Source of the DNA: an uncultured Actinomycetes bacterium
Lineage (GTDB): Bacteria; Actinomycetota; Thermoleophilia; UBA2241
Length of the DNA stretch: 64,000 nt
Assembly: GCA_963709345.1 (NCBI GenBank)
Contig: CAVPVX010000011.1
Coordinates: 276,886 to 340,885, forward strand
Direction of reading: 5' to 3'
Below are positions 1 to 63,322 of this stretch, piece after piece. The number at the start of each line of letters is the position of its first letter. Position 1 is the first letter of the stretch. The notes under the pieces are model-generated. The model was not told the DNA's origin, made no database searches, and saw only the letters and a program-made list of their open reading frames with translations. A program made the translations under genes and the position numbers.

Positions 1-191
1 ATCTGGGTCGTCACCCTCATGCCCAGAGCAAAGGCGAGCTTGCCCATGGTCGCTGCGGTGAGGTTGCACTCGCCGGCGAGCACGCGCGAGACCCAGGCCC
101 GTGACGTGCCCATGCGACGGGCCAGCTCGGCGCCACTGACTCCCTTGGCGTCCATCTCGGCGACCAGCGCGTCGATGAGCTCGAGCGTCAT
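1..191 (-). CDS. higA: HTH (XRE/Cro-C1) antitoxin, HigA-like; partial, C-terminus lies beyond the window start
   Basis: Reverse translation from ATG at 191 gives MTLELIDALVAEMDAKGVSGAELARRMGTSRAWVSRVLAGECNLTAATMGKLAFALGMRV. This is a classic helix-turn-helix antitoxin. It lies immediately downstream of a RelE/HigB-like toxin ORF on the same strand. Confidence 0.7.
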   Translation of the reverse strand, partial: MTLELIDALVAEMDAKGVSGAELARRMGTSRAWVSRVLAGECNLTAATMGKLAFALGMRVTTQ

Positions 192-256
192 GAGGTAGCT
201 CCAGTACTCGGGATGCTGCCGCGCCAGCGTCGCGTGCTCATCGAAGGTCGGCGCCA

Positions 257-658
257 TCACGCTCCTATCTCGACAACGATGTCGCCGACGGCCGAGGCGG
301 CGAGGTAGTCCGTGCGGAGATGCTGTGCACGCCGGACGATCCCCCGGAGCTCGCGCGGTTTGGGCTTCCTGCAGAGCTCGCTGCACACGATGAGCCGCCG
401 CTGCTCGAAGAAGAAGACGAGCCGGAACCCTCGAGGCGTCTTGAGCTCGAAGATGCCCTCGCCGAGGTGTCGCGACCGGCGCTCGTCTCTCGGTGGTCCG
501 GCGAGAGCGATCTTGCCCAGCAAGGCGAGGAGTTGAGCATGGGCCGCTCGGTCGGTGACCGCGACTGCATCAAGCGCCTCCCTGATGGAACAGCGACCGC
601 GACCATCGACCACGGCGGCGATGATCCACGTGCTGCTCGAGATGACAGTGAGCCGCAT
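257..658 (-). CDS. RelE/ParE-superfamily toxin, HigB/Gp49-like
   Basis: ORF 257..658(-). The motif LGEGIFELKTPRGFRLVFFF...RLIVCSELCRKPK resembles phage-Gp49/HigB toxins. It sits upstream of the HTH antitoxin in toxin-then-antitoxin order with a 65-nt gap. Confidence 0.65.
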   Translation of the reverse strand: MRLTVISSSTWIIAAVVDGRGRCSIREALDAVAVTDRAAHAQLLALLGKIALAGPPRDERRSRHLGEGIFELKTPRGFRLVFFFEQRRLIVCSELCRKPKPRELRGIVRRAQHLRTDYLAASAVGDIVVEIGA

Positions 659-859
659 GTTAACTCATAAGTTGACGCGGCGCAAAGCTTGGACACTGTC
701 CCGCGTTGGAGTATCGACGTGCCGGCGACACGGGAAACTGGTTCATGGAGTCCTCACGACGCCAGCGTATGCCGGCCGCACCACGCGTCAGGATGACGAA
801 AGTGGGGCGGGGTGGACGTTGCGGGGTGGCGGCGCGGCAGTGCTCGCGCGGCGCGCCGG

Positions 860-1969
860 TCAAGCAGAAGCGACCTGCCCGCGGCCACGCCACCCGGCGT
901 CCAGACGCGCGTACCCGAGCGCGAGAAGGTGGCTCGCGACCAGGATCGGCACCCCGAGCAGCGCGGCGACCCATGACGGCTGGTCGAACACACCGAGGCC
1001 GATCGCGAGCCAGCCGATCAGTACCCACTGGATCAGGTAGACGGCGGTGATGTTGCGGCTCAGCGAGGTCAGGTAGCGCGGCACGATGCGCCACGAAAGG
1101 CGGCCGTCCAGCCACCACAGGAGCGGCAGCCAGAGCAGGACGAAGCCCGCCAGCAGCAACTGCACCGGCAGGCCGCTGCGGTAGTAGTCGCCGAAGGCGA
1201 GGATCTCGCCGGGGCCGGGAGCAAAGGGGAGGAGCGCTACGCCGGCCAGAGCCGCACCGCAGCCTGCGAGCGCCCAGCCCCGCATCAGCCGGCGCGCGGA
1301 AGAGGCACGGGCGGCGAACCCGGCCAGAGAGAGGCCGAGCAGTGGGTAGGCGAGCCACGGGAAGAGCGGGAACGACACCCAGTCGCCGAGCCCCCACAGC
1401 GGGTCGAGGGCGACGTTCCCGCCGCCGACCCCCCACAGGAGCGGCGCGACGACCGCCACCACCGCCGCCAGCGCCAGGACGAGGCGCGGGTCGCGCGCGT
1501 ACCGCTTGACCGGTCCGAGGACGATGAGCGAGAGGCCGGCGAGCTGGAGGATGTCGATCTCGAAGAGCGGCCCCCACCAGGTGCCGCCGAAGGCGTCGAT
1601 GGCGCGCGCGTCGCCGCTCACCAGCAGCGGCACGGAGAAGCGCACCAGGTTGAGCAAGTAGCCGAGCGCGAACAGCTGCAGCCCGCGCACGACGCCCTCG
1701 CGCACTCCGGTGCGGGACGAGCTGCCGAACAGGAAGCCCATCGCGACCATGAAGACCGGCGCGGCGGGGGCGGTGCCGAGGAGCAGGAAGGTCACGCCGA
1801 GCACCGAGTCCTCGCCGGAGCCCACGGCGAAGATGATCTGGACGTGCTGGAAGACCATGAAGACGATGGCCAGCCCGCGGGCGAGGTCGAGAAAGCGGAG
1901 TCGGCCGTCGGTGGTGAGCAGCGGTCCGAACGCTCGACGAGGACCAGGGCCCGGGGTCGGCCGGCTCAT
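860..1969 (-). CDS. Multi-TM membrane protein, DUF1624 / acyltransferase-like (heparan-alpha-glucosaminide N-acetyltransferase-like) family
   Basis: ORF 860..1969(-), 369 aa with about 9 TM helices. The N-terminal motif RFLDLARGLAIVFMVFQHV matches the DUF1624 signature. Confidence 0.55.
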   Translation of the reverse strand: MSRPTPGPGPRRAFGPLLTTDGRLRFLDLARGLAIVFMVFQHVQIIFAVGSGEDSVLGVTFLLLGTAPAAPVFMVAMGFLFGSSSRTGVREGVVRGLQLFALGYLLNLVRFSVPLLVSGDARAIDAFGGTWWGPLFEIDILQLAGLSLIVLGPVKRYARDPRLVLALAAVVAVVAPLLWGVGGGNVALDPLWGLGDWVSFPLFPWLAYPLLGLSLAGFAARASSARRLMRGWALAGCGAALAGVALLPFAPGPGEILAFGDYYRSGLPVQLLLAGFVLLWLPLLWWLDGRLSWRIVPRYLTSLSRNITAVYLIQWVLIGWLAIGLGVFDQPSWVAALLGVPILVASHLLALGYARLDAGWRGRGQVASA

Positions 1970-1978
1970 CGTGCGACG

Positions 1979-2203
1979 TCACGCATCGTCGGCGTCCGCA
2001 GACTTGTGGCGGTAGGCCTTCCACGCGATGTAGGCGAGGCTGCCGGCCATGAGGACGATGAACCACGGGCTGGTGATGATGGCGGCGAGAGGTTCGCCGA
2101 GCAGGACCAGCACCCAAAGGATCACCGCGGTGATCAGCGCATCGACCGCCAGCTCCTGCAGGACGAATCTGGCTCGCGAGGCAGTGCGCTTTGGGGACGC
2201 CAT
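1979..2203 (-). CDS. Small 2-TM membrane protein (hypothetical)
   Basis: ORF 1979..2203(-), 74 aa. It has a hydrophobic core and lies 10 nt upstream of the DUF1624 gene on the same strand. Confidence 0.4.
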   Translation of the reverse strand: MASPKRTASRARFVLQELAVDALITAVILWVLVLLGEPLAAIITSPWFIVLMAGSLAYIAWKAYRHKSADADDA

Positions 2204-2553
2204 CGGAAGTCGCTTTCGTCGTCTGACCAGGGAGGCCGGTCACGCAACGGCTACCTCAGGATAGTATCAGCAGAGGTCAGATTCGCTGGGCCGCGTCGTC
2301 GTCGATCTCATGGAGGCGCGCGGGTTCGACGGGGTGACCCTGCGGCACGTCGCGGGTGTCTCGCAGTCGACAGTCCGCCGGTGCTTCGACGCCGAGGGGC
2401 GTGTCACCCCATGGGACGAGCATGACGTGCCCATCGGCGCTCCCGCACGGGTATTCGTGCAGAATCCCGGCTAGGATAGCGTCCCGCGCTGGTCGCCGAT
2501 CCCGGCGCGGTGTGCACGGCGACACCACCGGCCGACACGTCGGAAGGGCGTTC

Positions 2554-3759
2554 ATGAACGATGCGATCCCTTACTCCCCAGGCGCGCCGGCGGCGGACCG
2601 TGATGATCCGGCCACGGACCTGCAACGCGCGATGGACCGCTGGTTCTTTCGTCGCGGGCTGCCGCAGTTCGCCCTCGACCACAGTTCCACCACGGCCATC
2701 TGGACGAGGGCGTCGCCGTTCCTCTTCGTCAGCTTCCTCTTCCTCGTCGTCACGAGCGCCGCCGATGTCCGCAGCGTCGCGGGCGGCGTGGCCGTCGCCG
2801 TCGCCGCCGGGCTGTTCCTGGTCGCCTTTGGAGTCGTCAATCTGCGCGGGGGGCGACCGTTCCATGCGCTGCCGCGGCGCGTCGGCTGGGGCGTGCTCGC
2901 TGCCTACGTCGTCGTGCCCACACTCCTCAGTGGCTTCGCCTCACTGCGGTGGCTCCCACCCCTGGTGACCGTGGGGGTGGCCGTCGGGTTCCTCGCGCTC
3001 GCCTGGGTCGTCACCTGGGCAGCGCTCATCCCGCTCGTTGGCTGGGCCGTCCGGTGGACCACGCGGCAATTCGGCAGCGTCGTGCCGCTCGTCACCCGTG
3101 CCCTGCCACTGCTTCTGCTCTTCGTCACCATCATCTACCTCACCACGGAGGTCTGGCAGGTCGCCGGCACGCTGCCCGCCCGGTGGCTGTGGCTCACCAT
3201 CGGACTCTTCATCCTTCTCGGCCTCTGCGTCATCGCCACGCGCCTTCCGCAGGGGATCCACAGCCTGGAGGCCACTGGCGACAGAGCCTCCATCGAGAGC
3301 GCCTGTGCCGGCACGCCGCTGGCCCCCGTCGTCGCCGGCATCGCCGACCTCGGCGAGCCGCGGCCGCTGACCCGTCTGCAGCGTCTCAACATCGGCGTCG
3401 TCATGACGATGGCCCAGGTGGTGCAGGTGGCTCTGTTCGCCGTGGTCGTGTGGCTCTTCTTCCTGCTCTTCGGGACCATCGCCGTCTCCATCCCCGTCCA
3501 GATGGAGTGGCTGGGCGGCATCAACCCCGTGGACGTGCTGTGGCACCTGACGCCCGATCGCGGCCTCACCCGCGAGTCCGTGCGCGTGGCGACGTTCCTC
3601 GCCGGCTTCTCGGCGTTCTACGTCACTGTCTACAGCGCTTCGGACGCGACCTACCACGAGCACTTCTACGCGGACATCGGTCGCGAGCTGGAGCGTGCCA
3701 TGGCGGTCCGCCAGGCCTACGTGGCCCACAGCGTCGAACGCGGTCCGCAGACGCGCTGA
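2554..3759 (+). CDS. Polytopic integral membrane protein of unknown function
   Basis: ORF 2356..3759(+). The most plausible start is ATG at 2554 (MNDAIPYSP...). There are about 8 predicted TM segments and codon third positions are GC-rich. I recognised no family. Confidence 0.5.
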   Translation: MNDAIPYSPGAPAADRDDPATDLQRAMDRWFFRRGLPQFALDHSSTTAIWTRASPFLFVSFLFLVVTSAADVRSVAGGVAVAVAAGLFLVAFGVVNLRGGRPFHALPRRVGWGVLAAYVVVPTLLSGFASLRWLPPLVTVGVAVGFLALAWVVTWAALIPLVGWAVRWTTRQFGSVVPLVTRALPLLLLFVTIIYLTTEVWQVAGTLPARWLWLTIGLFILLGLCVIATRLPQGIHSLEATGDRASIESACAGTPLAPVVAGIADLGEPRPLTRLQRLNIGVVMTMAQVVQVALFAVVVWLFFLLFGTIAVSIPVQMEWLGGINPVDVLWHLTPDRGLTRESVRVATFLAGFSAFYVTVYSASDATYHEHFYADIGRELERAMAVRQAYVAHSVERGPQTR

Positions 3760-3842
3760 GCCGAGAGCCGGCGCGTGGATCCGGCGCAGGCGCGCCGTCG
3801 CCTTCGACCCTCCAATCCGTCACACCGGAGAGAGTGCGCTGA

Positions 3843-4381
3843 TCAGTCGATCTGCGTCTCTGCGGCTGTGAGTCGCGCGATCCACGCCGACCCGTCGCAC
3901 GTGAACAACGTGCCGACTGTGCGGGATCCCACCCTCTCGAGAGTGACGGCGTACTCGCCCACTTGCACGCGGAGAGACGACCCAGATTCGGCCACCCTCC
4001 CTGGCTCGTCCCCGACGTCCATGCGTCCCCAATACTCAGTGTACGCGTCACCATCCTCGCGCATCAGACGGGGATTTCCTTCGCAGGGATAGACATGAGC
4101 GCTCGAGCGCTCGGAGCGGTCTTCTGTGTCGAATCGACTCACCCACTCCATCGTGTGCGTTGCCGGATCATAGGATGCGTGCCCTGCGAATGCCTGCGTG
4201 GAGGAATAGGGAAGACGCTCGGGGTCGGCGGAGCGGGAGACACGGATGTCGGCGAAGTGGCGATCGCACTGTAGCCACCAGACCTCGGAGACTTCGCTCG
4301 GGCCATGGCCGTCGGCCTCAATGGAAAGGCGGCGCCATGCACCGTTGGGCCAATCCACTATGCCGTTTCCCCCAGACCGCA
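3843..4381 (-). CDS. Hypothetical protein (W/D/E-rich, no recognisable family)
   Basis: This is the C-terminal 180 aa of ORF 3843..4676(-), starting at ATG 4381 (MRSGGNGIVDWPNGAWRR...). Its composition is protein-like, unlike the surrounding R/P-rich frames. It lies in a lower-GC patch next to an IS remnant. Confidence 0.4.
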
Positions 4382-4672
4382 TACAGGACCGTTCGAGCCG
4401 AGCCGCCACTCTCGCCGAAAGAGCGGCTCGGGGAAGGGCAATCGACAAGTCCGCAGGAGATTCAGCCTGCCTCCGATGGCCTGTGGGTACTGTCTCATCG
4501 AGCCCCACCTCTCCGCTACGTCGATGGTCGGGGAGCGCCCCGACTGAGCGGCCCCGCGTTCTCTGCGATTGCGCCCAGAGCCACCTTCGGCGTGGCTCAG
4601 TGCTCCTCCTGTGCATCGACGTATCGATTACGCTACTGGGAGCAGTCATCGGGCGCAAGGGTTCGCTGCTCT

Positions 4673-5641
4673 TCATCCATCCTCGTACGAGTGCGCGCGT
4701 CTCATGACCGGTTCGCAGTTCTGGCTGTTGCCATCGACCCGTACCCTGCCCGGAATCCCGGCATCTCTCGAGGAATCGGGCCCGCCATGGACGCCTCCCA
4801 GTACCCCGACGTCGCCGCAGCGTCCTGGTGACACGCCCGACCTCGGTTGACGATCCTCACGACAGCGATCATGCGCAGTGCCCGATTCGCCGAACGATCG
4901 TCGCCGCGATTGAGCCGGGGACGTCTCGTTGGCCCCGAGGAAGCGGGGAGGGGCGCGGCTCGGCGGACGAGCTCCGCGAGGGCCCGGTCGAGTCGGCCGA
5001 TCTCCCTCTCGAGGGCGGCGATGCGCAGGGCGAGGCTTCGCAGGGCGAACTTGGCCGCCTGCAGGGGCTCGGCAAGCCGCCGTGGATCCGGCCGCATTCG
5101 TGCGCACAGACGTGCCTGCCTGCCCGAGGAGAGTCTTGCCGAGCAGCGACTCGCGCAGCTCGGCAGGAGCGGTCGCGATCAGGTCTCCCGGCTGGCACAT
5201 TGCAGCGGCAAGCGCCTTCACGGCCCCCTCTCGAGAGACGCGAATCTGGCGGATCGACTCGATCACCCCGGTTGTGTCTTTCGGCACGACGACGATCTCG
5301 CCGGCCAGGACATTCCGCGCCGCGGCCAGGGCGTCGACGGGGTCGGGATTTCCCCTTGCGGCTGCGCGCGTGCTTGTGCGGCTGATTCACCTCCAGCAGG
5401 CAGACCTGTCGGCCTGTGAGCCAGCGCGTGAGACCAGCGCCGTAGGATGAGGTCGATTCGATCCCCAGAGCCGCGATCGGGCCGAACCCCTCCAGCCACG
5501 AGTGAAGCGCACGATAACCCGCGAGCGTCGCGGGAAGTCCGCGTCCCCGAGTCGCTGCCCGCGCTCGTCCAAAGCCACGGCGTGATGCGTCCGAGAGTGA
5601 CAGTCCACGCCGCCGATGACACCAAGCCACTGTTCCGGCAT
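4673..5641 (-). mobile_element. IS110-family transposase remnant (frameshifted in at least 3 frames, C-terminal region missing)
   Basis: Minus-strand fragments match the IS110 DEDD N-terminal domain: MPEQWLGVIGGVDCHSRTHHAVALDERGQRLGD, then ATLAGYRALHSWLEGFGPIAALGIESTSSYGAGLTRWLTGRQVCLLEVNQPHKHARSRKGKS. A further fragment is a middle coiled-coil: LQAAKFALRSLALRIAALEREIGRLDRALAELV. No single intact ORF spans them. Confidence 0.6.
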
Positions 5642-5928
5642 GCTCGCTCGCCCTCCTCATGGCGGTGACCGTGGGGCCGCGGCGGCCGCACAAGACAGCG
5701 AAGGGACTCACTTCGTGCGGGTTCCTGACTTGGCTACAACGAGGAGAGCTCCGTCGCGCACGACACCTCGTTCACTGCGATGTGCCGACGCATCGTCGTG
5801 GACGGCAGCGACCGTGTGCTCTGGGTGGCCGTCACGGGCGAGCAGCGTCCCGGGGGGCCCGGACGACCTCCCACCAGAGTGACGCGGCCCGCGAGTCCGC
5901 AGGTCACGTCCGCGGGCCCGGCGCCAGG

Positions 5929-5937
5929 TGCTAGAAT
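5929..5937 (+). promoter_or_regulatory. Extended -10 element (TGcTAGAAT) about 10 nt upstream of the dnaE ATG; possible near-leaderless transcript
   Basis: TGCTAGAAT sits at 5929-5937 and the dnaE ATG at 5948. Confidence 0.3.
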
Positions 5938-5947
5938 CCGGGCATCC

Positions 5948-8900
5948 ATGGCCGCCGACTTCGTCCATCTCCACGTGCACAGCGAGTACTCGCTGCTCGA
6001 CGGCGCCTGCCGTGTGAAGAGCCTCGTCCACAGGGCCAAGGAGCTGGGGATGCCGGCCGTCGCGCTCACCGACCACGGCACGCTGGGCGGCGTCGTCAAG
6101 TTCTACAACGCCGCCCGGGAAGAAGGCATCAAGCCGATCATCGGCCTCGAGCTCTACGTCGCGACCGACCGGCGCTCCCGCGCCGGCGTCAAGGAGAAGA
6201 ACGCCCACCTCACGCTGCTCGCCCGTGACGAGACCGGGTACCGCAACCTCGTCAAGCTCTCCACTCACGCGTACCTCGAGGGCTACTACTACAAGCCGCG
6301 CGCCGACTGGGAGTTGCTCGAGCAGTACCACGACGGTCTGATCGCGCTCACCGGTTGTATGAGCGGCAAGGCGTCGCAGTTGCTCCGCGACGGCAACGAC
6401 GAGGCCGCGCTGGCCGAGGTGCGGCGACTGGCCGACCTCCTCGGCCCTGAGAACGTTTACGTCGAGCTGCAGGACGCCGGCCTGCCCGAGCAGCGCGAAC
6501 TGCTGCCCAAGCTGGCGCAGCTCGCCGAGCAGGCCGGTCTGCGCACGGTCGCGACCAACGACGTGCACTACCTCCGTCACGAGGACGCTCACGCGCACGA
6601 CGCCCTGCTCTGCATCCAGACGCAGAGCAACCTCTCCGATGAGGTGCGCATGCGCTACGGCAGCGACGAGTTCTACCTCAAGTCGCCGGAGGAGATGGAA
6701 GAGCGTTTCAAGGACTACCCGGGCGCGTGCTCCGCGACGGTGGAGATCGCCGAGCGCTGTGACTTGAGCCTCGACTTCGGCGACTACAAGCTGCCGACGT
6801 ACCCGGTGCCCGAGGGCACTACCGAGGCGGCGCACCTGCACGCGCTGTGCGAGCACGGGCTCGTGAAGCGCTACGGCGCCGAGCCCTCGGCCGAGGCGCG
6901 CGAGCGCCTCGACTTCGAGCTCGGCGTCATCGGCGAGATGGGCTTCGACGCGTACTTCCTCATCGTCTGGGACTACGTCAAGTACGCCAAGGACAACGGC
7001 ATCGCCGTCGGACCCGGCCGTGGGTCGGCCGCCGGGTCCATCGTCAGCTATGCGCTCGGCATCACCGACATCGACCCCCTGAAGTACGACCTGCTCTTCG
7101 AGCGCTTTCTCAACCCGGGGCGCAAGAGCATGCCCGACATCGACATGGACTTCAGCGTGGAGCGTCGCGAGGAAGTGATCGCGTACGTGGCCGAGAAGTA
7201 CGGTCGCGACCGGGTCGCCCAGATCATCACGTTCGGCACCATGGCGGCGCGCGCGGCCGTTCGCGACGCCGCCCGGGTCATGGGTCTGCCGTACGCCGTC
7301 GGCGACAAGATCGCCAAGATGATCCCCGAGCAGGCGCCGCCGGCGACCTTCGCGCAAGCGATGCATTCCGGCAGCGAGCTCAAGCAGGCCTGCGACGCCG
7401 ACGAGCAGGTCAGGGAGGTCGTCGACCTCGCGATGAGCCTCGAGGGCCTCATCCGCAACGAATCAATCCACGCCGCCGCGGTGGTGATCAGCGACAAGCC
7501 GCTCACCGAGTATCTGCCGCTGCAGCAGAAGGGCGAGGCCGAGCTCGTCACGCAGTTCGACATGAACGACGTCTCCAGGCTCGGCCTGCTCAAGATGGAC
7601 TTCCTCGGGCTGCGAAACCTCGACGTCATCGAGGCTGCGCTCGCGATCATCGAGAAGACACGCGGCGTCTGCATCGAGATAGACCAACTGCCGCTGGACG
7701 ACGCGAAGACGTACACGATGCTGCAGCGCGGCGACTCCATCGGCGTGTTCCAGTTCGAGAGCCCCGGCATGAAGGAGGCGCTCCGCGACGTGGGCCCCAC
7801 GCAGTTCGAGGACCTCATCGCCATCGTCGCCCTCTACCGGCCGGGGCCGATGCAGTACATCCCGACGTATGCGCGCAACAAGAAGAACCCGGCCTCGGTC
7901 GTCTACGACCACGAGGCTCTGCGCCCCATCCTGGAGCCGACCCACGGCGTGACCATCTACCAGGAGCAGTACATGGCCATCGCCCGGCGCGTCGGCGGCT
8001 TCACGCCGGCTCAGGCCGACGACCTGCGCAAGGCCATCAGCAAGAAGAACCACCAGCTGATGGCCACCCTCAAGGAGCCGCTGCTGGAAGGGCTGGAGAG
8101 GAGCGGCGTGCCGCCGGCCGTCGCCACCAGGCTCTGGTCGAGCTTCGAGGCCACCGGCGACTACTCGTTCAACAAGAGCCACGCCGCCTGCTACGCGATG
8201 ATCAGCTACCGCACCGCCTGGCTGAAGGCGAACTATCCGGTCGAGTACATGGCCGCGCTCATCAGCAGCGTCATGAACACCAAGGACAAGGTGCCGTTCT
8301 ACGTCAACCAGTGCCACGAGATGGGCCTCGATGTCCTGCCGCCGGACGTCAACGAGAGCGATGTCGGCTTCACGGTCGTCGAGGACAAGATCCGCTTCGG
8401 CCTCAACGCCGTCAAGGGCGTCGGTGTGGGAGCGATCGAGGCGATCATCTCCGCCCGCGCCGGCGGGCCGTTCACATCCGTCTTCGACTTCTGCGGCCGC
8501 GTCGACTCGCAGCTCGCCAACAAGCGCACGCTGGAGGCGCTGATCAAGAGCGGCGCCTTCGACAGCACCGGCGATCCGCGCCGGGGCATGCTCGAGGCGC
8601 TGCCGCTGGCGATGTCGGACGGCGAGCGCCGCCGCAAGGACGCAGCGCGCGGGCAGGGTGGGCTCTTCGATCTCGTGCCGCCCGACGACGGCGGCCACCC
8701 CGCGCCGACGGTGCCGCGGGGCGAGTGGAATCAGGCGACGCTGCTCAAGGCCGAGAAGGAGGCCCTCGGCCTGTACGTCTCGGCCCACCCGCTGCAGGGT
8801 CTGCGCGATCAGTTGCGCGACGAGATCGAAGTCCCCGTCGGCGCTCTCGACGACAGCGGCGACGGCGCCGTCCTCTGGACCGGCGGCATCGTCGCGAGCG

Positions 8901-9358
8901 CCCAGAAGCGCGTCAGCAAGAACGGCGGCGTGTGGCTCTCGTTCCGTCTTGAAGACGTTGACGGCGGCATCGAGTGCCGTGCCTGGCCCAAAGTGTACGA
9001 GCAGTACCGCGACGAACTGGTCGAAGACGGGATCATCAAGGTCAAGGGCAGGATCGAGCGCCGCAACGAGGGTGAAAGCATGCTCGCCGTGATCGAGGTC
9101 GTGCCCTTCAACGGCGTCAGCGAATACCATCCTCTCACGGTGGTCATCGACGCCGGCTGCGTGCCGGCGGACGTGATCGACGATCTCCACCGCGTACTCT
9201 CGGACTTTCCCGGCCAGGTGCCGGTGGTGCTGCAGATGGTCCGTGGCGACGAGCGCGCCAGGCTGCGGGTCGGCGATGGTCTGCGCGTGGACCCGGTCGC
9301 CGGTCTGTACGCCGAGCTCAAGGCGCTGCTCGGCGAGAGCTGTATCGGGGTCGGCTGA
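5948..9358 (+). CDS. dnaE: DNA polymerase III alpha subunit
   Basis: The 1137-aa ORF starts MAADFVHLHVHSEYSLLDGACRV, a PHP domain. Fingers/palm and OB regions are typical of DnaE. Confidence 0.95.
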   Translation: MAADFVHLHVHSEYSLLDGACRVKSLVHRAKELGMPAVALTDHGTLGGVVKFYNAAREEGIKPIIGLELYVATDRRSRAGVKEKNAHLTLLARDETGYRNLVKLSTHAYLEGYYYKPRADWELLEQYHDGLIALTGCMSGKASQLLRDGNDEAALAEVRRLADLLGPENVYVELQDAGLPEQRELLPKLAQLAEQAGLRTVATNDVHYLRHEDAHAHDALLCIQTQSNLSDEVRMRYGSDEFYLKSPEEMEERFKDYPGACSATVEIAERCDLSLDFGDYKLPTYPVPEGTTEAAHLHALCEHGLVKRYGAEPSAEARERLDFELGVIGEMGFDAYFLIVWDYVKYAKDNGIAVGPGRGSAAGSIVSYALGITDIDPLKYDLLFERFLNPGRKSMPDIDMDFSVERREEVIAYVAEKYGRDRVAQIITFGTMAARAAVRDAARVMGLPYAVGDKIAKMIPEQAPPATFAQAMHSGSELKQACDADEQVREVVDLAMSLEGLIRNESIHAAAVVISDKPLTEYLPLQQKGEAELVTQFDMNDVSRLGLLKMDFLGLRNLDVIEAALAIIEKTRGVCIEIDQLPLDDAKTYTMLQRGDSIGVFQFESPGMKEALRDVGPTQFEDLIAIVALYRPGPMQYIPTYARNKKNPASVVYDHEALRPILEPTHGVTIYQEQYMAIARRVGGFTPAQADDLRKAISKKNHQLMATLKEPLLEGLERSGVPPAVATRLWSSFEATGDYSFNKSHAACYAMISYRTAWLKANYPVEYMAALISSVMNTKDKVPFYVNQCHEMGLDVLPPDVNESDVGFTVVEDKIRFGLNAVKGVGVGAIEAIISARAGGPFTSVFDFCGRVDSQLANKRTLEALIKSGAFDSTGDPRRGMLEALPLAMSDGERRRKDAARGQGGLFDLVPPDDGGHPAPTVPRGEWNQATLLKAEKEALGLYVSAHPLQGLRDQLRDEIEVPVGALDDSGDGAVLWTGGIVASAQKRVSKNGGVWLSFRLEDVDGGIECRAWPKVYEQYRDELVEDGIIKVKGRIERRNEGESMLAVIEVVPFNGVSEYHPLTVVIDAGCVPADVIDDLHRVLSDFPGQVPVVLQMVRGDERARLRVGDGLRVDPVAGLYAELKALLGESCIGVG

Positions 9359-9388
9359 GGCCGACCGTCACGACGGGGGAGAGGGCCC

Positions 9389-10588
9389 ATGATCCCTGAA
9401 GGCATGCGCGACGTGCTGCCGCCCGAGATGGGTCGCCTGCGCGCCGTCGAGACGGCGCTGTGCGGCCGCTTCGAGGCGTACGGGTACGGTGAGGTTCGCA
9501 CGCCCTGGCTCGAGTTCGCGAAGTCCTTCGCCGTCGTGGACGACGACACGCTGGCGGCGGGGTACCGGCTGCACGGCGAGCAGGGGCACGAGCTCATGGT
9601 GCGCACCGACATGACGGCGCCGGTCGCGCGTCTTGCGGCGGAGCGCTGTGACGACGAGCCGCTGCCGCTGCGCTTCTTCTACGTCGCGCCCTGCATCCGC
9701 CCTTGGGCGCCGCAGCGCGGGCAGGACGGCGAGTTCATGCAGGCGGGCGCCGAGCTCCTCGGTCTCGACTCGGCGGCCGCCGACGCCGAGTGCGTGACGC
9801 TGCTCTGCGACGCGCTCTCGTCGTTGGGTCTGCGCGAGTTCAAGATCACCCTCGGCAGCGTCGCCTTCCAGCGAGCGCTCATCGAGTCTCTCGGCCTCGA
9901 CCCGGCCGACCGCGAGGATCTCATCGAGGCGCTCGCCGACCGCGACTATCCGCTGGTCGAGAGCATCGCCGCCAACGCCGGGCTCGGGCACGACGCGCTC
10001 GGAGCCTTGTGGCGGACGCTCGAGCTCAGCGGCGTCGACGACAGCCTGGCGCAGGCGCGCAAGCTGGCGCGGAGCGACACGGCCGACGCGGCCATCGCGC
10101 GGCTCGTCGCGGTGCGCGACCTCGTCGGCGAGGCGGGGTTCGGCGCCGAGCTGGCCTTCGACTTCGGGCTCATGCACGACCTCACGTACTACTCCGGCCT
10201 CATCTTCGAGGCGTACGCTCCTCGTGTGGGGCTGCCGGTCGCGACCGGTGGCCGCTACGACCATCTCGTCCAGCGCTTCGGCTGGGACGTCCCCGGCGTG
10301 GGCTTCGCGATCGCCGTGGACCGGCTCGTCGACGCGCTGGACGAAGCCGGGCTGGCGCCGGTGGCGCCGCCGCCGGCGCTCGCCTTCGTCGGGGGTCTCG
10401 AGGAGCCGGCGCGGGCCGCCGAGCTTCGTCGCGCCGGTGTCGGTGTCCGCGCCCTGCCGGAGGGCGCGGCCGATCCGGCGCCGCCGCGGCTACGGCGGCG
10501 CGGCGGCAGCTACGAGCTCGAGCTGGCCGACGGGCGGACCGTCGGCGGGAGCTGGCGCGACGTTCGGCGCGCCTTGGGGTCGCAGTGA
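9389..10588 (+). CDS. hisZ: ATP phosphoribosyltransferase regulatory subunit HisZ (HisRS paralogue)
   Basis: 399 aa, MIPEGMRDVLPPEMGRLR...; class-II aaRS-like core. A GGGGGAGAGGG ribosome-binding site precedes the start. It is directly followed by a short-form hisG. Confidence 0.85.
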   Translation: MIPEGMRDVLPPEMGRLRAVETALCGRFEAYGYGEVRTPWLEFAKSFAVVDDDTLAAGYRLHGEQGHELMVRTDMTAPVARLAAERCDDEPLPLRFFYVAPCIRPWAPQRGQDGEFMQAGAELLGLDSAAADAECVTLLCDALSSLGLREFKITLGSVAFQRALIESLGLDPADREDLIEALADRDYPLVESIAANAGLGHDALGALWRTLELSGVDDSLAQARKLARSDTADAAIARLVAVRDLVGEAGFGAELAFDFGLMHDLTYYSGLIFEAYAPRVGLPVATGGRYDHLVQRFGWDVPGVGFAIAVDRLVDALDEAGLAPVAPPPALAFVGGLEEPARAAELRRAGVGVRALPEGAADPAPPRLRRRGGSYELELADGRTVGGSWRDVRRALGSQ

Positions 10589-20417: not shown

Positions 20418-20639
20418 ATGACGCCGGGAGCATCCGGGGACGGAAAAAAAGACGGCGGGCACCGCTCGTCTGCGTCCGCGGAATCGGTGGCGTTTCTACT
20501 TCTTGCAGGCGTCGCAGTCGGGCTGGGTGTGGGTGCCGGGCTTGACTGGCTGTTCGGTAAGTTCCCGCTGTTCGCCGTAATCGGTGTGTTCGCCGGGTTC
20601 GTTCTGGCGCTGTACGCGATCTACGTAGAGACGAAGTAA
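20418..20639 (+). CDS. AtpZ/AtpI-family small membrane protein (putative F-ATPase-associated)
   Basis: The core ...LLLAGVAVGLGVGAGLDWLFGKFPLFAVIGVFAGFVLALYAIY... matches PF09527. The start is uncertain: ATG 20418 or GTG 20487. Confidence 0.6.
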   Translation: MTPGASGDGKKDGGHRSSASAESVAFLLLAGVAVGLGVGAGLDWLFGKFPLFAVIGVFAGFVLALYAIYVETK

Positions 20640-20670
20640 CCGCTTCGGGAGGACCGGACTTATCCGCAAG

Positions 20671-21036
20671 TTGGTCATAGCACCGCTTCTTTTTGGAGCC
20701 ACTGCAGTGGTCTGCGCCGTGGTCGCCGCCGTCGTTGGGCAGCCGGTGTGGGCCGCCGCCGCGGGCGCCAGCCTCGCGCTCGTCTACTGGGCGCTCGATG
20801 CGCTCACCTGGTGGCGCGCTCGCGATCGCGACGACCTCGCGCTCGGACTCGCGATCGGCGGCATGTTCACCCGGCTTCTTGTGGTGCTCACGGCTCTCGT
20901 CATCATCGGCATTCTCGACCGCCCGTCGTTCCCCACCGCGGTGGTCTCATTCCTCGTCGCGTTCACTCTGTACATCCTTGTCCGTCCCCTCATGTACCTC
21001 ACCGCGTCCACTCCGGCGGGCCAGGCGAGGCTGTAG
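20671..21036 (+). CDS. atpI: ATP synthase protein I
   Basis: A 121-aa hydrophobic protein immediately upstream of atpB. The TTG start is uncertain. Confidence 0.5.
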   Translation: MVIAPLLFGATAVVCAVVAAVVGQPVWAAAAGASLALVYWALDALTWWRARDRDDLALGLAIGGMFTRLLVVLTALVIIGILDRPSFPTAVVSFLVAFTLYILVRPLMYLTASTPAGQARL

Positions 21037-21890
21037 TGAAGCATCCCTGGCGCTGGATCATCGGCCTGCTGGCCGTCGGTTTACTCGTCGCCCTGGCGAT
21101 CATCCCCGGCGGTGCCAGGCGGGAGTTCCCGGTCGCGGAGGAGTTCGATCTCACCCACCCCCTCGTCTCGCTGCCCACGGTCGGGCCCTTCGATCTGTCG
21201 GTGAGCAAGGCCGTCGTCTATCTGTGGATCGCCACCGCGGTCATCGTCGTCCTCGCGATCATCATCGCTCGCAGCCTCAAGGTGCATCCAGGCCGGTTCC
21301 AGTTCACTATGGAGACGCTCTACGCTCTGGCGCGCGACGGTATCGTAGGCTCGGTCATGAAGAGCGGCAAAGCGACCTGGTTCCCCTACGTCGGCGCTGT
21401 GTTCGTCTTCGTGCTCGTGAACAACGTGATCGGGCTGCTCCCGCTTCCGTTCGGCGAGCATCATCAACCGTCCTACTACGCCGCCACCGCCAACCTCAAC
21501 GTCACGGTGACCCTGGCGCTGTTCACGTTCGTGTTCACGCACTACGCAGGGCTGCGGAAGAACGGCCTTCGGTACTTCGCCAACTGGGCGCCGCCCTCGG
21601 CCCCTCCGGTGCTCAAGCAGGTGATCTGGTTCATCCATGTCATCAGCGAGATCTTCCGTCTCATCTCGCTCTCTGTACGTCTGTTCGCCAACATGCTCGC
21701 CGGGCACGCCATCCTCGCCGTGTTCTTCGCCATGGTGCTCATCTTCCAGAGCTACCTGGCGGCCGTCGTGCTGCAGGGCGCTTCGGTGCTCATCTACATG
21801 TTCGAGATCTTCGTCGCCTTCATCCAGGCGTTCATCTTTGCCATTCTCTCCGCCGTTTACATCGGCGGCGCTCTCGACCAGGACCACTGA
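21036..21890 (+). CDS. atpB: ATP synthase Fo subunit a
   Basis: GTG at 21036 overlaps the atpI stop. It carries the key-Arg motif ...SLSVRLFANMLAGH.... Confidence 0.9.
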   Translation: MKHPWRWIIGLLAVGLLVALAIIPGGARREFPVAEEFDLTHPLVSLPTVGPFDLSVSKAVVYLWIATAVIVVLAIIIARSLKVHPGRFQFTMETLYALARDGIVGSVMKSGKATWFPYVGAVFVFVLVNNVIGLLPLPFGEHHQPSYYAATANLNVTVTLALFTFVFTHYAGLRKNGLRYFANWAPPSAPPVLKQVIWFIHVISEIFRLISLSVRLFANMLAGHAILAVFFAMVLIFQSYLAAVVLQGASVLIYMFEIFVAFIQAFIFAILSAVYIGGALDQDH

Positions 21891-63246: not shown

Positions 63247-63322
63247 GGGCGACTAGCTCAGTTGGGAGAGCGCCTGCTCGACAAGCAGGAGGTCGTTGGT
63301 TCAATTCCAACGTCGCCCACCA
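63247..63322 (+). tRNA. tRNA-Val (anticodon GAC), 76 nt with encoded CCA; C rather than U at position 33
   Basis: Manual cloverleaf: acceptor GGGCGAC/GTCGCCC, D-arm GCTC-AGTTGGGA-GAGC, anticodon stem CCTGC/GCAGG with loop TCGACAA, T-arm GTTGG-TTCAATT-CCAAC, then ACCA. A TATACT -10 lies at 63229-63234. Confidence 0.8.

Follow-up and report, generated by a model that had tools for sequence, protein, structure and literature searches.

The DNA in front of dnaE in the genome of an uncultured bacterium of the Thermoleophilia (Actinomycetota) raises a simple question: did the accessory genes found there arrive together as one insertion, or were they gathered piece by piece? The stretch of DNA that was analysed, called the window here, is 64 kb long with a GC content of 69.5%, and positions 1-5928 lie ahead of the conserved DNA that carries dnaE. 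An earlier inspection of these letters, referred to below as the sequence-only reading, took this patch for an old insertion that has been eroding. A feature map of 1-5950 was built from the listing of open reading frames (ORFs), codon-position GC and family scans, and the region was compared with the corresponding loci of related genomes. The results indicated that 1-5928 very likely belongs to a hypervariable accessory slot, as the part of it nearest to dnaE, and that the slot content is a mosaic of separate gains, rearrangements and deletions and not one island.

The right boundary of the slot is sharp. A DnaE protein scan, taking one genome per species, provided eight Thermoleophilia relatives (L007, L008, L009, L010, L011, L012, L013 and L075) with DnaE proteins 69-88% identical. 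DNA homology with all eight, as determined by blastn, begins at 5912-5929; rightward of 5929 it continues for 5 to >13 kb in every case and through hisZ wherever the contig of the relative reaches that far. Upstream of dnaE, the content is different in every relative. The sequence-only reading had described the region ahead of dnaE as accessory and variable, and the comparison bears this out, since the relatives share the DNA from about 5929 on and differ before it. An alignment of the junctions from the window and seven relatives located the boundary at a TGCTAGAAT box on the plus strand (5929-5937), 10 nt ahead of the dnaE ATG (5948-5950), where G5930 and the heptamer TAGAATC (5932-5938) are invariant. 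No conservation was found upstream of the box in that alignment. The box resembles an extended -10 promoter, which suggests that the dnaE mRNA would be almost leaderless; a promoter scan of 1-6100 did not find a sigma-70-type promoter consensus. The dnaE gene was annotated on the plus strand from ATG 5948 onward. An extension of this frame to 5780 (1192 amino acids), proposed by the ORF finder, looks spurious and has no support in the relatives.

Further upstream, the relatives carry a conserved leuB-ilvE-leuA block that encodes isopropylmalate dehydrogenase, a class IV aminotransferase and isopropylmalate/citramalate synthase, with the Pfam domains Iso_dh, Aminotran_4 and HMGL-like/LeuA_dimer. 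Judged from gene order, the slot in this clade is bounded by leuB-ilvE-leuA(cimA) on one side and by dnaE-hisZ on the other. The window does not include the leuB-ilvE-leuA block, so that the slot would reach past the left edge. What lies between the two blocks changes from genome to genome. The slot holds a DUF6951 gene in L008, a gene of 145 amino acids with no assigned identity in L013, an FAA hydrolase gene in L011, and TerC and DUF1624 genes in L075. In L004 and L088, it contains genes for an FAA hydrolase, the 145-amino acid protein, a DUF1624 protein, a 74-amino acid protein (mostly deleted in L088), a 401-amino acid protein and a major facilitator superfamily (MFS) transporter.

The same comparison divides the patch itself. 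Positions 860-3771 are common to the window and to L004, L088, L089 and L090, with 82-94% DNA identity, whereas 3772-5928 was found in none of the compared relatives. Homology with these four relatives ends at 3771-3797, which shows that the 2.1 kb to the right came about separately and that the patch is not a single insertion. The idea of an old eroding insertion thus holds in part: there is a decayed IS110-family insertion sequence (IS) and the patch is variable, but, of the DNA to the right of 860, only 3772-5928 is private to this genome among those compared. It could still be proposed that the whole patch, or 1970-5928, is one mobile island that was brought in by the IS110 element and is now eroding as a unit. 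Such an island would account for the difference from L075 and L009, where the DUF1624 gene abuts dnaE with a gap of about 140 bp and compared with which the window has about 4 kb of extra DNA (1934-5927) that ends in the IS relic, and it would also fit the depressed third-position GC of 3772-5700. It is hard to reconcile with the finding that the leuA-dnaE slot of L004 and L088 also holds the DUF1624, 74-amino acid and 401-amino acid genes, with no IS110 there, and that these genes lie beside sbcCD in L089, or with the native-like third-position GC (0.85-0.92) of the genes in 860-3759. IS110 elements are not known to carry passenger genes. None of the intact IS110 copies in L087, L168 and L171 has an HRI1-like gene or a 401-amino acid gene between its ends. 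Elements of this group are minimal, consisting of a recombinase gene and non-coding ends (PMC11208160). Family scans detected no integrase domain in 1-5928, the only flanking repeats in 1-10000 were short and at chance level, a search of Rfam over 1-10000 at E<=1 returned nothing, and no match to plasmid or phage DNA was obtained. The hallmarks of a classical genomic island (integrase, tRNA/attachment site and flanking direct repeats) are absent. We consider that an IS110-borne island is a very improbable explanation of the patch.

Nucleotide composition had been one of the reasons to set this region apart, since the sequence-only reading described the segment from 3.76 to 5.7 kb as less GC-rich. 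The description is accurate for 3772-4858, the low part of the patch, which has a GC content of 0.648 (3rd percentile), and the loss at third codon positions is clear: codon-position GC gave values of 0.63-0.75 across about 3750-5700 compared with 0.85-0.93 in neighboring genes. Over 3772-5928 as a whole, total GC is only modestly lowered (0.674, the 17th percentile of segments of the same size, with dnaE itself at 0.673), and in the IS part it is average (0.695). Total GC is a weak argument for a single insertion.

The mosaic reading of the slot also rests on the behavior of the genes shared with close relatives. The first of them (860-1969, minus strand) encodes a polytopic membrane protein of 369 amino acids of the DUF1624/acyltransferase-3 type, with nine hydrophobic segments in hydropathy analysis and matches to PF07786 HGSNAT_cat (E=1.7e-12, 47.8 bits against a threshold of 22) and PF01757 Acyl_transf_3 (E=1.8e-12, 47.4 bits against 31). 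Its orthologues in L004, L088, L089, L075 and L009 are 78-90% identical. Next to it, and in the same direction, ORF and hydropathy analyses identified a gene (1979-2203, minus strand) for a 74-amino acid protein with two transmembrane helices; its third-position GC is 0.85, and the proteins of L004, L089 and L090 match it with 85-90% identity. These two genes are the pair of minus-strand membrane proteins, one of them DUF1624 acyltransferase-like, that had been recognized from the sequence alone. What that inventory did not include, and the present analysis found, is a pseudogene stub of a TetR-family regulator at 2295-2468 on the plus strand. A tblastn comparison showed that the stub corresponds to residues 21-83 of the intact 204-amino acid TetR of L089 (L089 5066-5680; TetR_N E=2.4e-13, TetR_C_14 E=1.3e-8), with 62% identity and two small in-frame gaps. 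It lacks the N-terminal 20 and the C-terminal approximately 120 amino acids, so that a complete TetR_N helix-turn-helix (HTH) followed by a C-terminal ligand-binding domain is not present in the window. The 54-amino acid ORF called over the remnant (2310-2474) has no Pfam match.

An intact 204-amino acid TetR gene, with TetR_N and TetR_C_14, lies between the 74-amino acid and 401-amino acid genes in L089 and L090, and has been lost altogether in L004 and L088. The genes would form a lineage-specific module, in which those for the DUF1624 and 74-amino acid proteins diverge from those for TetR and the 401-amino acid protein. In L089 (1748-12100), the module is located away from dnaE, between an MFS transporter gene and sbcCD, and in L090 (1-2090) the 401-amino acid gene is inverted relative to the TetR, 74-amino acid and DUF1624 genes. 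L075 and L009 keep the DUF1624 gene alone. As read from these gene orders, the module relocates and rearranges among close relatives, with no mobility gene in sight. The MFS genes beside the module in L004 and L089 were considered as possible orthologues and ruled out, as they share 26% identity.

The gene at 2554-3759 on the plus strand is the polytopic membrane protein of about 400 amino acids that had been noted before; ORF and hydropathy analyses gave a length of 401 amino acids. It had been put forward as candidate cargo of the eroding insertion, but it is not, since the same genes occur in relatives in slots that contain no IS110. The protein belongs to a family distributed across Actinomycetota (Nanopelagicales, Ilumatobacteraceae and others), for which clustering at 90% left at least 265 members. 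This family is unnamed. The members listed carry no Pfam domain and are all annotated as hypothetical proteins; a direct search found no meaningful Pfam match in any of 56 members, the 401-amino acid protein had no NCBIfam or PADLOC match, and sequence searches of the PDB with the family found nothing. An AlphaFold2 model calculated from an alignment of 56 sequences had a predicted local distance difference test (pLDDT) value of 89.4 and a predicted template modeling (pTM) score of 0.81, and a structure search showed that it is unlike any solved structure. The surroundings of the gene vary across the family: of 64 loci, 11 at most have a given neighbor in common, a count that depends on crude ORF calling in GC-rich DNA. 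As separate observations, in the more distant relative L005 (110-4115) a gene of this family is the last of three same-strand genes encoding 433, 479 and 397 amino acids, a run with no Pfam match, and at seven loci the upstream same-strand ORF clusters with the 401-amino acid family, which hints at tandem paralogues.

Could the DUF1624, 74-amino acid, TetR and 401-amino acid genes be one TetR-controlled system for envelope modification or export, with the 401-amino acid protein as a new transporter or channel that acts together with the acyltransferase? The four genes are linked in L089 and L090, and three of them in L004 and the window, in spite of changed flanks and of the inversion in L090; the TetR and 401-amino acid genes are adjacent and co-directional in L089; and the model of the 401-amino acid protein is confident and resembles no solved structure. 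On the other hand, linkage to the DUF1624, 74-amino acid and TetR genes was seen in only 4 close relatives of 82 family loci, a number for which shared ancestry could suffice, and no neighbor is conserved across the family. Furthermore, the regulator is a decayed stub in the window and is gone from L004 and L088, the 74-amino acid gene is mostly deleted in L088, and the DUF1624 gene is the only one retained in L075 and L009. A joint system of this kind is therefore unlikely. The same holds for the larger proposal that the 401-amino acid protein is an undescribed membrane fold, controlled by TetR now or in the past, that makes up a new envelope-modification or export module with the DUF1624 and 74-amino acid proteins, which we find doubtful, while a functional module that includes the 401-amino acid protein may exist. 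With TetR reduced to a stub, ligand-dependent repression of the module would presumably have been lost in this genome.

To the right of the point where homology with the relatives stops, the first feature is a gene on the minus strand (3843-4382; the end had been placed at 4381) that the sequence-only reading regarded as an orphan. It was right that the ORF is protein-like and a real coding gene, but an orphan it is not. Ten close homologues of 168-172 amino acids are 61-78% identical, with 34 invariant columns, and because their lengths and alignment point there, the probable start is GTG 4358, giving a protein of 171 amino acids. The 277-amino acid version produced by the gene caller carries an N-terminal extension without coding signal. 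The ratio of nonsynonymous to synonymous substitution rates (dN/dS) was 0.15-0.19 against the homologues of L001 and L002, which indicates that the gene codes for a protein under constraint. Exhaustive searching with a profile retrieved 125 remote cluster representatives; among 46 proteins from this extended family, 30 matched PF16815 HRI1, with a best E value of 9.2e-16, and the family profile matches the structure of yeast Hri1 (PDB 3RBY, E=0.003). The predicted structure is an all-beta barrel with barrel-type structural neighbors, at low confidence (pLDDT 52). Membership of the window protein in the HRI1 family would accordingly be indirect and remote, through relatives linked by profiles.

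Third-position GC in the HRI1-like gene is 0.72, close to that of the L001 homologue (0.70) and unlike that of its present neighbors (about 0.9), a difference that fits horizontal acquisition. The slot would then hold one intact, constrained HRI1-like gene of low third-position GC that was probably gained horizontally. The homologues in L001 and L002 adjoin a GNAT acetyltransferase gene, with no IS nearby. These data also decide whether 3772-5928 could be non-coding spacer in which the ORF is a chance frame of GC-rich DNA. Over much of the segment, GC differs little between codon positions, and both the low third-position GC of the ORF and the extension without coding signal in its 277-amino acid version are what a chance frame might display. 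A chance frame does not have ten homologues with 34 invariant columns, a dN/dS of 0.15-0.19 and a remote protein family, and the low third-position GC recurs in the homologue of L001. As an account of the entire segment, spacer is extremely improbable; it is refuted for 3843-4358 and is a possible description of 4383-4858 and 5727-5928.

The remaining feature of the private segment is the IS110-family relic (4859-5726, minus strand), which consists of a transposase pseudogene and about 85 nt from the proximal side of the left non-coding end. A decayed transposase in several frames had been recognized from the sequence alone. Transposase fragments in three frames were confirmed at about 4860-5640, and the limits were shifted from 4673-5641 to 4859-5726, the extent of IS-derived DNA. 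The relic is 79-83% identical to the intact copy of L087 over window positions 5726-4859, and the reconstructed protein matches thousands of IS110-family transposases, the best of which have 351-358 amino acids, 67-69% identity and the domains PF01548 and PF02371. It covers residues 1-303 of the transposase. The reading frame shifts three times, near 5530, 5340 and 5118, and 41 codons have been deleted at about 4952; the final approximately 50 codons and the right end were not detected in it. Its own fragments scored 18.8 bits for PF01548 (against 29) and 16.4 bits for NF033542 (against 140). Out-of-frame pieces had been called as ORFs of 204 and 280 amino acids, in the same way as the TetR stub had been called as one of 54.

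The left end is also incomplete. In IS110-group elements, this end encodes a bridge RNA that guides recombination (PMC11208160). A left non-coding end of about 237 nt is common to the intact copies of L087 and L168, and its distal approximately 150 nt are missing from the window. The predicted fold of 5642-5928 was no more stable than that of shuffled sequences (z=0.15) and had no Rfam match at E<=1, so no bridge-RNA remnant was detected there. Neither an uninterrupted recombinase frame nor a long bridge-RNA end is present. Because of the frameshifts, the deletion and the lost ends, the element is judged to be dead and immobile, able neither to move nor to guide recombination. An IS110-family element would thus have inserted beside the core promoter of dnaE and would have been inactivated later. 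The segment of 476 bp at 4383-4858, with a GC content of 0.651 and flat codon-position GC, was considered as the 3′ end or right end of the IS and rejected: tblastn with the C-terminal 56 residues of the transposase gave no signal, and the local alignment with the 3′ end of the intact copy scored 22 compared with a mean of 20.8 for shuffled sequences. On the other side of the relic, a GC-rich stretch of about 200 bp (5727-5928, GC 0.723) separates it from the dnaE promoter.

The left end of the window contains a toxin-antitoxin pair on the minus strand. The toxin gene (257-658), located upstream of the antitoxin gene, encodes a Gp49/HigB-like protein of the RelE/ParE superfamily (PF05973 Gp49, E=1e-5, 25.9 bits with a cut-off of 23.9). 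The antitoxin gene (3-257) encodes an HTH protein of the Xre/HigA-like type, which runs out of the window on the left before its C-terminus and which scored 30.2 bits for PF13560 HTH_31 (cut-off 27) and 23.5 bits for HTH_26 (cut-off 22). Its start, ATG 257 or GTG 260, overlaps the stop codon of the toxin gene (257-259). Third-position GC is 0.89 in the antitoxin gene and 0.80 in the toxin gene. The sequence-only reading had named a HigB-like toxin and an HTH antitoxin at 1-658, and the scores of both proteins, above the cut-offs, agree with it. The score for the HigA equivalog TIGR02607 was 21.3 bits, below the cut-off of 47.7, for a protein that is truncated by the edge. The pair was not found in any compared relative. 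From what is known of these families, this toxin-first HigB(Gp49)/HTH type II pair, private to our genome among those compared, would work through a labile antitoxin that neutralizes an mRNA-cleaving toxin and represses the operon. Searches with the defense-system models of PADLOC produced only generic HTH matches for the antitoxin and were discarded as evidence of a defense system; weak matches to PDC-M64B and PDC-M64C (E about 3e-7) were recorded among them and most likely reflect generic HTH similarity.

A patch with this many junctions might be suspected of being an assembly artefact. A 3,644-bp contig of the Logan assembly ERR12037370 carries the same ORFs of 74, 54, 401, 277 and 203 amino acids, identical and in the same order. 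The junctions between 1979 and about 5287 are thus covered by an independent assembly, and the patch is not an artefact of assembly.

Several points count against the view of 1-5928 as part of a mosaic slot, or narrow what it covers. As the slot has its left boundary beyond the window edge, the description applies to the dnaE-proximal part and not to the whole slot. The relatives are all metagenome-assembled genomes or metagenome contigs, some of them nanopore-based, and single frameshifts in them may be errors. An example is the DUF1624 gene of L075 (8741-9839) and L009 (807-1801), where the alignment to the window protein runs in two frames and could reflect a real frameshift or an indel of long-read assembly. 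The order of gains and losses would need a phylogeny to be polarized; the DUF1624 gene beside dnaE in L075 and L009 may represent the ancestral or the derived state. Observed here are the identities of the genes, the breaks in synteny, the lesions of the pseudogenes and the purifying selection on the HRI1-like gene; the sequence of events and the expression and biochemical roles of the slot genes are inferred. The HRI1-like protein itself scored 21.4 bits with PF16815, under the gathering threshold of 27. Finally, two segments are unassigned: 4383-4858 has no coding signal, no tblastx or blastn match above noise to any of the fetched loci and no Rfam match, and 5727-5928 has no coding signal, no similarity to the relatives or to IS left ends and no RNA-family match. 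With these points taken into account, we still hold the mosaic slot to be the best description of the patch.

Two features elsewhere in the window were recorded. The lowest-GC kilobase is at 20500-21500 (about 0.616), in ATP-synthase membrane subunit-like genes that follow a MraY/WecA-like gene, and appears ordinary. A tRNA-Val (GAC) gene at 63247-63322 is the sole match in the window to Rfam, at the gathering threshold, or by ARAGORN.

The value of these results, which lies mostly in annotation, includes the description of a place between leuA and dnaE where genes come and go in a clade of uncultured Thermoleophilia. The analysis also corrects the 277-amino acid ORF of the gene caller to an HRI1-like gene of about 171 amino acids and flags two pseudogenes, the TetR stub and the IS110 relic, the latter too degraded for work on bridge RNA. 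The patch is ordinary and holds nothing that would surprise a specialist. Its modest novelty is confined to two uncharacterized protein families, the 401-amino acid membrane protein and the bacterial branch of HRI1, which could be registered as new domain families.

The components of the slot can be compared with systems already described. The putative toxin-antitoxin pair resembles HigB-HigA type II modules in its above-threshold toxin domain, toxin-first order, overlapping stop and start codons and HTH antitoxin, and differs in that its antitoxin is truncated by the edge and falls under the HigA equivalog threshold. The DUF1624 protein is like the acyltransferase-3/DUF1624 acyltransferases in having both Pfam domains above threshold and about nine hydrophobic segments, with no fused SGNH domain and no NCBIfam equivalog match. 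The HRI1-like protein has a remote sequence relation to yeast Hri1 (YLR301W; PF16815; 3RBY), a beta-barrel protein, and its low-confidence model is all-beta with barrel-type neighbors, but it is a single domain of about 171 amino acids compared with the 245 residues of 3rby_A. The IS relic is homologous, including part of the left end, to IS110-group elements such as IS621, whose DEDD recombinases are guided by bridge RNA (PMC11208160, PMC11208158); unlike these, it is frameshifted and deleted, and has lost the C-terminus, the right end and most of the left end. Considered as a whole, the region differs from a classical genomic island, as the slot here is free of integrase, tRNA and direct repeats, and it is like the variable accessory slots found between housekeeping blocks, with conserved flanks, changing content and, in this genome, a toxin-antitoxin pair and an IS remnant.

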